In this document: one piece after another, positions 705 through 1,038 of the stretch
Layout of the letters: each line of letters begins with the position of its first letter
Numbering within the stretch: the stretch's first letter is position 1
Virus record (IMG/VR): IMGVR_UViG_2534681979_000013
Strand: one strand, 5' to 3'
Length of the DNA stretch: 9,540 nucleotides
Source: a virus
Taxonomy: Duplodnaviria; Heunggongvirae; Uroviricota; Caudoviricetes
The notes under the pieces: generated by a model
What the model was told of the DNA's origin: nothing
Seen by the model: the letters and a program-made list of their open reading frames with translations, nothing else
Database searches by the model: none
Position numbers and translations under genes: made by a program

Positions 705-718
705 GCAGAATATTCTGC
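705..718. repeat. Perfect 14-bp palindrome GCAGAATATTCTGC directly after the R stop codon
   Basis: Read directly: positions 705-718 are self-complementary. Function unknown (dimeric protein binding site or small hairpin). Confidence 0.9.
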
Positions 719-792
719 TGAAAATGCCGTTGACCAACGCGAACGGATAACACGAAACCCTGCGAACTGGCAAAATTTAAGTGAGTAAAAGT

Positions 793-832
793 AAAAACCC
801 CGTTTGTTGGCAGCAAGCGGGGTTTTGTGTTT
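793..832 (+). terminator. Candidate rho-independent terminator, possibly bidirectional
   Basis: AAAAACCCCGTTTGTTGGCAGCAAGCGGGGTTTTGTGTTT: GC-rich stem (CCCCG...CGGGG extended with wobble pairs), flanked by an A tract upstream and a T tract downstream. Confidence 0.5.
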
Positions 833-923
833 CTGACCTTGAATAAGGCAAGGGAGAAATTATGGGTAGGGAGGTTCTTTCCCTGTGAGGAAGTATAAAA
901 GATTCTTTCTGAGGTTGTCCATT

Positions 924-1037
924 ATGAAAGGCATTGAGGTGGAGACGCCAGCAAGTCTGGATTTAACAAGAGCGGCAGCTTTTGCCATTCGTATTGTGGC
1001 AATTGCTGTTCTGGTCTGGGCAATCCGTTGGTGGTGA
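924..1037 (+). CDS. Hypothetical small membrane protein (37 aa), possibly translationally coupled to Rz
   Basis: ATG 924 is preceded by GAGG at 9-nt spacing. Product MKGIEVETPASLDLTRAAAFAIRIVAIAVLVWAIRWW has one C-terminal hydrophobic helix. The TGA stop (1035-1037) ends 1 nt before the Rz ATG (1039). Not in the ORF track (too short). No homology evidence. Confidence 0.3.
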   Translation: MKGIEVETPASLDLTRAAAFAIRIVAIAVLVWAIRWW

Positions 1038-1038
1038 T

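Follow-up and report, generated by a model that had tools for sequence, protein, structure and literature searches.

What separates the endolysin gene R from the spanin gene Rz in many Escherichia coli prophages, and what might the intervening DNA do in a lysis operon? We addressed this question on a window of 9,540 nucleotides (nt) from the virus record IMGVR_UViG_2534681979_000013 of IMG/VR ("window" here means this whole stretch of DNA), the first 2.3 kb of which are the lysis region of an E. coli lambdoid prophage. R ends here with a stop codon at 702-704 and the ATG of Rz lies at 1039, leaving a spacer of 334 nt (705-1038), as had been reported in a first-pass annotation made from the sequence alone. 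That annotation described the spacer as an atypical insertion. Comparison with related loci shows instead that the spacer is made of two parts. The second part (~786-1038) is a copy of a compact cassette that late operons of phages exchange horizontally; it is a single unit, consisting of a terminator-type hairpin, a small stem-loop, a Shine-Dalgarno (SD) sequence, and a gene for a membrane peptide that is predicted to be anchored by its C terminus. The reading that we favor, with a probability of about 0.5, is that of a widespread and uncharacterised cassette whose peptide serves as a late accessory membrane-active protein at the holin/endolysin step.

Make-up of the R-Rz spacer

The spacer turned out to be anything but atypical: among 5426 complete E. 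coli genomes, 2213 share at least part of it, and in 674 the match extends over 80% or more of its length. Overall, the spacer or its variants are found in ~40% of complete E. coli genomes, and the spacer is also present in the Shiga toxin (Stx) phage GER2. Comparing R-Rz spacing across related prophages, as had been proposed, yielded classes that range from overlapping genes (prophage Sp3 of strain Sakai) to a gap of ~1 kb that holds an ant gene (Sakai Sp6, Sp9 and Sp11). The earlier idea of a small moron or regulatory insert held insofar as an extra element is indeed present in some related prophages and absent in others, but the 334 nt as a whole are not one insert. BLAST matches split the spacer into a first segment (705-~785, hereafter segment A) and the cassette (~786-1038). 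Segment A matches most Stx phages over query positions 1-85/94, and in Sakai Sp9 and Sp11 it is followed by ant, without the hairpin or the small gene of the cassette (called the RWW gene below, after the last residues of its product). Since segment A is kept after R in prophages that lack the hairpin and the open reading frame (ORF), it represents a flank of the R gene rather than part of the insert. The R-Rz gap also houses unrelated inserts in other prophages, among them ant, an ORF for a transmembrane (TM) peptide of 48 amino acids (aa), a methyltransferase gene and other small ORFs, and it is evidently a moron site.

The palindrome that had been noted directly after the R stop (GCAGAATATTCTGC, 705-718) is indeed a perfect one of 14 bp at that place, but it occurs at chance level and is not conserved. 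Perfect 14-mer palindromes are expected 0.58 times per window, with at least one in 42% of simulated windows, and the present one is perfect in only 17 of 214 loci that have the same lysozyme 3' end, all belonging to the clade of the window itself. Most relatives carry GCAGAATATTTTGC or CAGAATATTTTCCT instead, with 1-3 mismatched pairs in the non-perfect loci. A second perfect 14-bp palindrome lies elsewhere in the window (5645-5658). An inverted repeat between segment A and the hairpin (749-773/807-831) was considered as an anti-terminator and ruled out, because segment A persists without the hairpin in Sakai.

In contrast to the palindrome, the terminator-like hairpin proved real and strong, with 15 pairs, an A-run before the stem and a U-rich run after it (Table 1). 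It folds with −24.4 kcal/mol on the + strand (z = −5.1 against shuffles) and with −14.8 kcal/mol on the − strand (z = −2.2). In sequence it looks like an intrinsic terminator in both directions, having a G+C-rich stem that is followed on its 3' side by a U-rich tract, GGGGUUUUGUGUUUCU on the + strand and GGGGUUUUUACUUUUAC on the − strand. We collected 312 instances of the cassette from E. coli genomes, IMG/VR, metagenomes and other genera (our locus numbers begin with L), a sample that is biased to E. coli prophages. A scan detected a stable stem 5' of the ORF in 309 of 309 evaluable loci, and the terminator hairpin proper in ~267 of these, 38-69 nt upstream of a conserved Tyr codon; in ~40 loci of one lineage a point mutation (CGGGG to CGAGG) weakens the hairpin and the scan chose a stem of segment A in its place, and two further loci are artefacts of window placement. 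The sequence of the stem varies while its pairing is kept, with double (compensatory) changes in 5 of 10 consensus pairs, and the hairpin accompanies the ORF in every context, including those after capsid genes and in baseplate modules; in the distant L325-L327 its distance from the start is 33-38 nt. Because the hairpin goes with the ORF across all contexts, and because its stem shows compensatory changes, we consider the two as parts of one unit. Within the weakened lineage, 36 loci (among them L172 and L283), which form a common E. coli sub-lineage of the ALKS-type cassette (a class described below), combine the G-to-A change in the hairpin with a Tyr-to-Cys change (TAT to TGT) in the N-terminal extension of the product, and the hairpin change alone is seen in six loci.

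Between the hairpin and the gene lies a second, small stem-loop that abuts an SD-like AAGGGAG; its CCTTG...CAAGG stem also precedes the start in L325, L327 and a class of relatives that we call the ALKS type. A mini-ORF of eight codons (MGREVLSL) follows, with a stop codon that overlaps the GTG at 885 (GTGA). In ALKS-type relatives the homologous ATG, with its SD, is where the long ORF actually begins, which suggests an insertion of ~25 nt and, possibly, a coupling of termination to reinitiation. No + strand sigma-70-like promoter was found in 705-924, nor by manual inspection of six divergent versions of the cassette. Since no such promoter lies between hairpin and ORF, the gene is most probably read from the late transcript, and in lambdoid phages, as known from lambda, this transcript is Q-modified and resistant to terminators.

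The small gene, its starts and its product

The ORF at 924-1037, which had been annotated as encoding a single-TM peptide of 37 aa with a TGA 1 nt before the Rz start, is a real gene, for a peptide of membrane type, but its start was probably placed too far downstream. A GTG at 885 would extend the product to 50 aa (MRKYKRFFLRLSIMKGIEVETPASLDLTRAAAFAIRIVAIAVLVWAIRWW). RefSeq holds only the 37-aa internal form (WP_000675931.1, "hypothetical protein"), and a literature search by WP_000675931 found no paper.

Evidence for coding comes mainly from a second E. coli allele (L062-L087 and L006), which belongs to another lysis cassette, one that has two different holins along with an M15 endolysin. 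Its homology to the window covers exactly 885-1042, and it has its own version of the hairpin upstream. Over 885-1037 the two alleles show 27 differences, of which 21 fall in third, six in first and none in second codon positions; amino acids change only conservatively (I/V/L, or R/G). The Nei-Gojobori estimates between the alleles are 1.22 for synonymous (dS) and 0.05 for nonsynonymous (dN) divergence (dN/dS = 0.04). This pattern shows a protein-coding gene on which purifying selection is strong.

The codon-position pattern takes in the 13 codons that precede ATG 924 as well. At 885 most loci have GTG; L044 and L085 have ATG instead, distant relatives use TTG or ATG, and an SD always stands before this start. 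Moreover, the N-terminal extension is kept as protein in Salmonella (MKKYRRILLRLSIMKG...), in the betaproteobacterium Silvimonas terrae (MNYKRFFMRLTMQNG...) and in metagenomic homologues (MKLYRKHFRMRLSMDG... and MTVYRKTFRLRISMNAG...). The match to the PHROG family phrog_4493 (E = 5.5e-16) aligns residues 1-37 of the short form with positions 14-54 of a 56-position profile, which has 13 extra N-terminal positions compared to the short form. The substitution pattern, the swapping of start codons, the extension in homologues and the length of the profile together make the 50-aa product from GTG 885 the likeliest one, and we regard it as very probably the actual product.

The internal start is conserved as well. 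TGAGG with ATG is found in 16 of 16 cluster representatives; the internal SD uses the rare AGG Arg codon in all 31 non-redundant coding sequences, while other Arg columns use CGN and AGR freely; and distant members keep GAGG or GAGA with the ATG. The gene therefore appears, by these sequence traits, to have a dual-start layout with two in-frame starts. The two forms would differ in charge, the long one having a basic N-terminal extension of 13 residues (net +5) and the short one an acidic N-tail (net −2).

AlphaFold2, run on the family alignment, predicts a helix over residues 3-19 with moderate confidence and a second one over residues 22-49 with a predicted local distance difference test (pLDDT) score above 90, and hydropathy in a 19-residue window reaches ~1.8-2.0 over residues 25-49. 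The predicted fold is thus a basic amphipathic helix followed by a C-terminal membrane helix. The AFAIR motif, Pro22 and Gly16 are conserved in homologues down to 50% identity, with free synonymous variation. The protein ends in ...WAIRWW straight after the TM helix, with no charged C-terminal tail.

The 3' end of the gene is joined tightly to whatever follows. In all contexts the next gene starts ~1-12 nt after the stop codon or overlaps it, as in TGATATG of the window, or TGACATG, TGAAATG and TAGCCCATG elsewhere. Within UGGUGGUGAU lies GGUGAU, a complement of the 3' end of 16S ribosomal RNA. We infer that the RWW-stop sequence may double as the ribosome-binding region of the downstream gene, in which case the cassette could insert without affecting the expression of what follows. 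The same ending, RWW-stop, is seen in an unrelated family of 32-aa TM peptides: one member (MAEKLSTWKFILIW...GQIRWW; L328 1022-1195, phage Stx1_8100 of type Stx1a) abuts Rz, and another (MNGTLPAWRFLLLW...HAVRWW; ORF5, L326 3305-3403) abuts a lysozyme-like gene.

Family, genomic contexts and neighboring genes

A word-indexed search retrieved 112 proteins of the family, and a full scan of 1.84 billion representatives with a hidden Markov model gave 34 clusters at E < 1e-3. Besides phrog_4493, the peptide matches phrog_1115 (E = 2.5e-5) and phrog_3246 (E = 5.1e-5), whereas neither the peptide nor its variants matched anything in Pfam (E ≤ 1), NCBIfam or PADLOC. Three C-terminal classes can be distinguished: the short RWW class of the window, a longer RWW class (Salmonella), and the ALKS class, which has 60 aa, starts with ATG and is very frequent in E. 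coli.

The cassette is not specific to R and Rz. Its upstream neighbor is a gene for a signal-anchor-release (SAR) lysozyme in 216 loci, a GH108 muramidase in 38, an M15 peptidase in 25, a baseplate spike in 10, an unclassified "NNPGNIR" protein without Pfam match in six and a T4-lysozyme-like protein in two, so that an endolysin of one of five types stands directly upstream in ~290 of the 312 loci (~93%). Three distant members directly follow major-capsid genes. On the downstream side we found the Rz-type cluster in 110 loci (a methyltransferase of Salmonella, a single case, is grouped in), a 49-aa TM peptide and then Rz in 108, a 60-aa lipoprotein (phrog_7528) in 50, and a gp25-like baseplate protein and an i-spanin-like protein in six each; a PLD-like gene in Silvimonas is another single case. 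Despite a dS of ~1.2, the peptide is 90% identical behind SAR lysozymes and behind M15 or GH108 endolysins, which go with different holins.

Several arrangements around the cassette merit description in their own right. In the metagenomic phage L326 (2440-3410), three near-identical terminator-type hairpins alternate with five small, mostly TM, ORFs, forming a tandem array between the major capsid gene and the lysozyme-like gene, which the last ORF of the array (the one ending in ...HAVRWW) abuts. In L064 (2616-2798) and ~50 other loci, all with M15/GH108 cassettes, a 60-aa lipoprotein (lipobox LVGC) starts 1 nt after the RWW gene, and in L064, the one lipoprotein-type locus looked at in detail, no Rz-like spanin was found. 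We considered the peptide and this lipoprotein as a two-component spanin and rejected the idea: both are far too short for the periplasm, and the TM helix of the peptide is C-terminal. The peptide also has no Cys and no lipobox. An unrelated TM peptide of 43-49 aa (MGWLMISDKLITLVKSLCVLVGISF...) lies directly upstream of Rz in Sakai (L098 2150-2296, ECs_5730; L093, ECs_5722) and in the 108 fetched loci mentioned above, following either ant or an ALKS-type cassette. Small hydrophobic ORFs seem to accumulate directly in front of Rz.

The window itself is closely related to known prophages. Its positions 600-1150 are 99.8% identical to a prophage of O104:H4 strain 2011C-3493 and 99.1% identical to phage GER2, and its first 1490 bases are 98.7% identical to O104:H4. 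The genes follow the order holin (3' end), R, the 334-nt spacer, Rz with Rz1 embedded in it, and a Rha/ant-type gene (Table 1). R carries a 1-nt deletion at ~349 (GGTGGATG-CAAACC) that causes a frameshift, while the O104:H4 gene is intact with 534 nt, and the A-run at 720-724 of the spacer is one base shorter than in O104:H4; these two 1-nt differences reflect either a decaying prophage or sequencing errors in the source. The Rha/ant-type gene and its conserved leader (1588-1690, with a small ORF, MNTEPFRMTLEDAGLVIGAFLWAGILCDKVHH) sit 3' of Rz in the window, and Sakai Sp6, Sp9 and Sp11 have the same leader and ant as an insert in the R-Rz gap, so the ant moron uses alternative sites around Rz.

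A search of Rfam with the whole window at E ≤ 1, and with eight related loci at the gathering threshold, gave nothing in the cassette. Outside it, the only matches were to STnc100, in the moron site upstream, to tRNAs, and a weak one to asX2 on the − strand over the Rz terminator region (1528-1606; 27 bits against a gathering threshold of 70, E = 0.064), which is probably due to chance. The equivalent place in Sakai, just downstream of Rz and on the opposite strand, is that of HnrS (EcOnc10-12; L093 ~2023-2070), an Hfq-dependent small RNA (sRNA).

Table 1. Features in and around the R-Rz spacer, by position in the window
Feature	Position	Strand	Basis
Class II (S21-type) holin gene, 3' end	3-167		
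R, SAR (R21-type) lysozyme gene, frameshifted (reads 172-372 and 369-704)	172-704	+	Pfam Phage_lysozyme on both halves
Segment A, conserved 3' flank of R21-type lysozyme genes, outside the mobile cassette	705-785	+	Follows R in Sakai Sp9 and Sp11
Intrinsic-terminator-type hairpin (A-run 786-793, stem-loop 794-826, U-rich run 827-836)	786-836	.	Fold and z-scores; 5' end of the cassette
Small stem-loop 2 (CCTTG-AATAAGG-CAAGG)	837-853	+	Fold; putative function
Mini-ORF of eight codons	862-888	+	Read from the sequence
SD of the 50-aa form (GGGAGG)	869-874	+	SD and in-frame GTG/TTG/ATG at the same place in 16/16 representative clusters
Gene for a putative 50-aa tail-anchored membrane peptide	885-1037	+	Codon-position pattern, dN/dS, homologues
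Sigma-70 promoter-like site facing the hairpin (−35 TGGACA 921-916, 18-nt spacer, −10 TATACT 897-892)	892-921	−	Promoter scan
Internal ATG of the annotated 37-aa form, with its own SD (GAGG, 911-914)	924	+	
RWW-stop junction (CGT TGG TGG TGA T ATG) with the Rz start	1028-1041	+	Next-gene spacing in all contexts
Rz (i-spanin)	1039-1497	+	Pfam Phage_lysis (E = 4.8e-39), phrog_13
Rz1, in the +1 frame inside Rz	~1259-1444	+	Lipobox LGVSAC in the embedded frame
Rha/ant-type gene	1700-2251		

Possible roles of the cassette

In the reading that we favor, the gene would be transcribed as part of the late (lysis) transcript, which would be Q-antiterminated here and read through the hairpin. Initiation at GTG 885 would yield the form with the basic extension and initiation at ATG 924 the form with the acidic tail, if both starts are used. 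The product would be a tiny inner-membrane protein anchored by its C-terminal helix, and TGG TGG TGA, placed directly on the Rz start, would keep downstream translation coupled despite the insertion. The peptide may then act generically on the cytoplasmic membrane at the holin/endolysin step, influencing for example the timing or the efficiency of lysis. Lysis modulation, one of two roles suggested in the first-pass annotation, is the leading, though putative, idea; the other would be an insulation of Rz/Rz1 transcription. A generic action is suggested by the protein being nearly unchanged between cassettes with different holins and endolysins; action on one specific partner is unlikely, and the peptide is probably not a partner-specific antiholin. 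We favor an accessory late membrane protein because the gene has no promoter of its own, is under strong selection, has two starts that differ in the charge of their products, and follows an endolysin gene in ~93% of the loci. The link to lysis cassettes is drawn from this place behind an endolysin gene and from the L326 members of the family, which are among the small TM ORFs upstream of the lysozyme-like gene.

Several points weigh against this reading. Translation, localisation and a lysis phenotype of the peptide are all deduced from sequence data, and the peptide does not have the charged C-terminal tail that is typical of holins. Cassettes are also found in baseplate and head modules, meaning that position does not imply a lysis role in every phage, and the 34 representative clusters among 1.84 billion proteins speak against a general requirement in lysis; these copies outside lysis modules, together with the narrow distribution, rather indicate that the protein is dispensable and portable. 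With no + strand promoter and a strong terminator upstream, expression should be lower in phages that do not use processive antitermination. Abundant variants of 28 aa keep only the C-terminal helix, so that the conservation could partly reflect the Rz junction and not the function of the peptide. Finally, the frameshift in R implies that the cassette of the window may sit in a decaying prophage.

Some of these observations could be accommodated by an ordinary moron, namely a small membrane protein whose function is unrelated to lysis (for instance superinfection exclusion or modulation of a host membrane protein) and which entered a permissive insertion site. Presence or absence of the cassette among related prophages, the unrelated inserts that the same gap takes, the copies in head and baseplate modules, and a protein sequence that is independent of the holin and endolysin type all fit this explanation. 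Nevertheless we hold it to be unlikely: a gene with no + strand promoter of its own is not expected to be expressed in the lysogen, the terminator lies upstream of the gene whereas classical morons have it downstream, PADLOC gave no match, and the ~93% of fetched loci right after endolysin genes of five unrelated families exceed what a random permissive site would give, albeit in a sample biased to E. coli. Alternatively, the cassette may act mainly as punctuation at the RNA level, with the hairpin serving as a partial terminator or as an mRNA-stabilising 3' end for the upstream gene, and the ORF reloading ribosomes for the next gene while the peptide itself has little function. Its position after highly expressed late genes (endolysin, major capsid, spike) and tight against the next start, the same ...RWW-stop junction in unrelated small ORFs, and a hairpin that is strongest on the + strand would agree with such a role. 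However, the dN/dS of 0.04 with conservative I/V/L replacements along the whole peptide indicates selection on the protein, and AFAIR, Pro22 and Gly16 are kept at the amino-acid level to 50% identity with synonymous sites free; we therefore consider this explanation very unlikely.

A different type of explanation arises from the − strand, where the sigma-70 promoter-like site lies within the first codons of the gene. It may possibly be the promoter of an antisense RNA of ~100 nt (~886 to ~786), although we regard this candidate as doubtful. If it were constitutively active, the cassette could be a switch similar to type I toxin-antitoxin (TA) systems, in which the antisense RNA, ending at the hairpin, silences a membrane-toxic peptide in lysogens by pairing with the long-form SD and start, until late transcription overrides it. 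The site scores 10/12; a −10 TATAnT and a −35 T-n-G-n-C-A at a fixed spacing of 18 nt are present in 16 of 16 enteric, Silvimonas and related clusters, and 273 of 309 loci retain TATAnT. The critical A of the −10 box comes from the Tyr codon, which is TAT in 31 of 31 coding sequences, with only position 5 of the box varying. Across seven independent sister pairs, synonymous differences number 6/63 in the first 12 codons and 75/204 in the rest (Fisher p = 1.7e-5), and the few in the first 12 codons fall in the would-be promoter spacer. In one lineage (36 loci) the −10 box is damaged (TACACT) and the hairpin weakened, the A-run 5' of the hairpin, which would be the U-tail of the antisense RNA, is kept even in distant members, and L326 has tandem copies. 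The predicted RNAs of 77-104 nt cover the long-form SD and start and fold into two small stem-loops and the terminator. The peptide itself, at 50 or 37 aa with a C-terminal hydrophobic helix, falls within the size range of type I toxins (<60 aa). Yet the distant L325-L327 keep hairpin and ORF without a −10 box (Tyr is TAC, or the hexamer is GGTACA, GATAAA or TGTATG), the promoter-like hexamers follow automatically from the conservation of K/N-Y-K and L-S/T-(I)-M in the protein, and two overlapping translation-initiation regions explain the synonymous constraint equally well. Furthermore, the hairpin of the window is much weaker on the − strand (−14.8 against −24.4 kcal/mol), no Rfam family matches the cassette, and the would-be toxin gene has no independent + strand promoter and is always co-oriented with, and coupled to, late genes. 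We thus judge such a switch to be improbable. Combining all elements into one hitherto unrecognised regulatory micro-module of late operons, with a bidirectional terminator, a dual-start tail-anchored peptide for lysis timing and an antisense sRNA promoter in its first codons that keeps the peptide off in lysogens and on late in the cycle, is in our view quite improbable; should it be true, a type I TA-like switch would exist in ~40% of E. coli genomes, including Stx and O104:H4 prophages.

The mapped Hfq-bound EcOnc sRNAs of Sakai also bear on an antisense RNA. None of them lies in an R-Rz spacer, but Sakai seems to be without the cassette, which was not found in the prophages checked (Sp3, Sp4, Sp6, Sp9, Sp11 and Sp17). 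As candidates for a cassette sRNA we rejected HnrS, which is just downstream of Rz and not in the R-Rz gap, EcOnc22, 23 and 24, which lie in the gap between the tail genes I and J and are unrelated in sequence, and EcOnc52, 13/32, 06 and 04, which map to moron sites upstream of the holin. EcOnc22/23/24 (~85 nt, Hfq-bound), antisense in the ~240-nt I-J gap of Sp11, Sp14 and Sp15 (L095 1672-1913, L096 1691-1932), represent another case of an sRNA in a late-operon gap.

An accessory membrane protein of the lysis step, as we favor, would be of interest because Stx and lambdoid lysis cassettes control the release of toxin and phage, and the conserved gene found there is annotated as a 37-aa hypothetical protein, probably with the wrong start. 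Hairpin and gene move as one unit between unrelated phages and operon positions, forming a compact genetic object. If the peptide affects lysis timing, it would be a new component of the pinholin/SAR-endolysin pathway, as in the cases of Mu releasin and LambdaSo Lcc6; if it has no phenotype, the cassette would be a clean example of a minimal selfish or "punctuation" element that brings its own translational coupling.

Among known systems, dual-start holin/antiholin genes (lambda S105/S107, phage 21 S68/S71) resemble the RWW gene in having two conserved in-frame starts and more N-terminal positive charge on the longer form, and the RWW gene likewise encodes a TM domain next to an endolysin gene, its two starts being supported by sequence conservation. 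The peptide differs from these holins in showing no sequence similarity to them, in having one C-terminal TM helix rather than 2-3 TM domains, and in an extension of 13 residues rather than 2-3; its gene stands after the endolysin gene, with a class II holin already upstream. Mu releasin gp25 (DUF2730) and Lcc6 of the Shewanella prophage LambdaSo are, like the peptide, tiny single-TM proteins; they act with pinholin or SAR-endolysin systems and demonstrate that small single-pass proteins can be essential or modulatory lysis factors. The window similarly carries a class II holin and a SAR lysozyme. However, the peptide has no homology to these proteins and no Pfam match at E ≤ 1, and the cassette also occurs with non-SAR endolysins. 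In Lcc6 the TM domain is N-terminal and followed by a tail of 43 aa that is predicted to be cytoplasmic, and the protein is encoded far from the lysis genes.

Type I TA systems (hok/sok, ldr/rdl, zorO/orzO) share with the cassette a hydrophobic peptide of <60 aa, a structured leader that hides the SD and, in one phage, tandem copies; a cis-antisense RNA with promoter and terminator is a candidate in the cassette. They are set apart from it by the lack of an own promoter for the cassette gene and its coupling to late genes, by an antisense promoter that is not family-wide, and by the absence of similarity to known toxin families. Lambdoid morons (Juhala et al. 2000; Hendrix; lambda bor and lom; the Rha/ant insert of Stx prophages) are the nearest in organization, being likewise optional and exchanged between conserved late genes. 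The cassette carries an optional extra gene as they do, but with no coding-strand promoter of its own, with the terminator upstream instead of downstream, and with translational fusion to the next late gene; it is also found in head and baseplate operons of non-lambdoid phages. The direct sequence matches of the peptide are phrog_4493, phrog_1115 and phrog_3246, which are computational clusters without function. The peptide is thus a member of phrog_4493, and the cassette is an uncharacterised small-protein moron of lysis cassettes and late operons with an unusual, terminator-first and translationally fused design.

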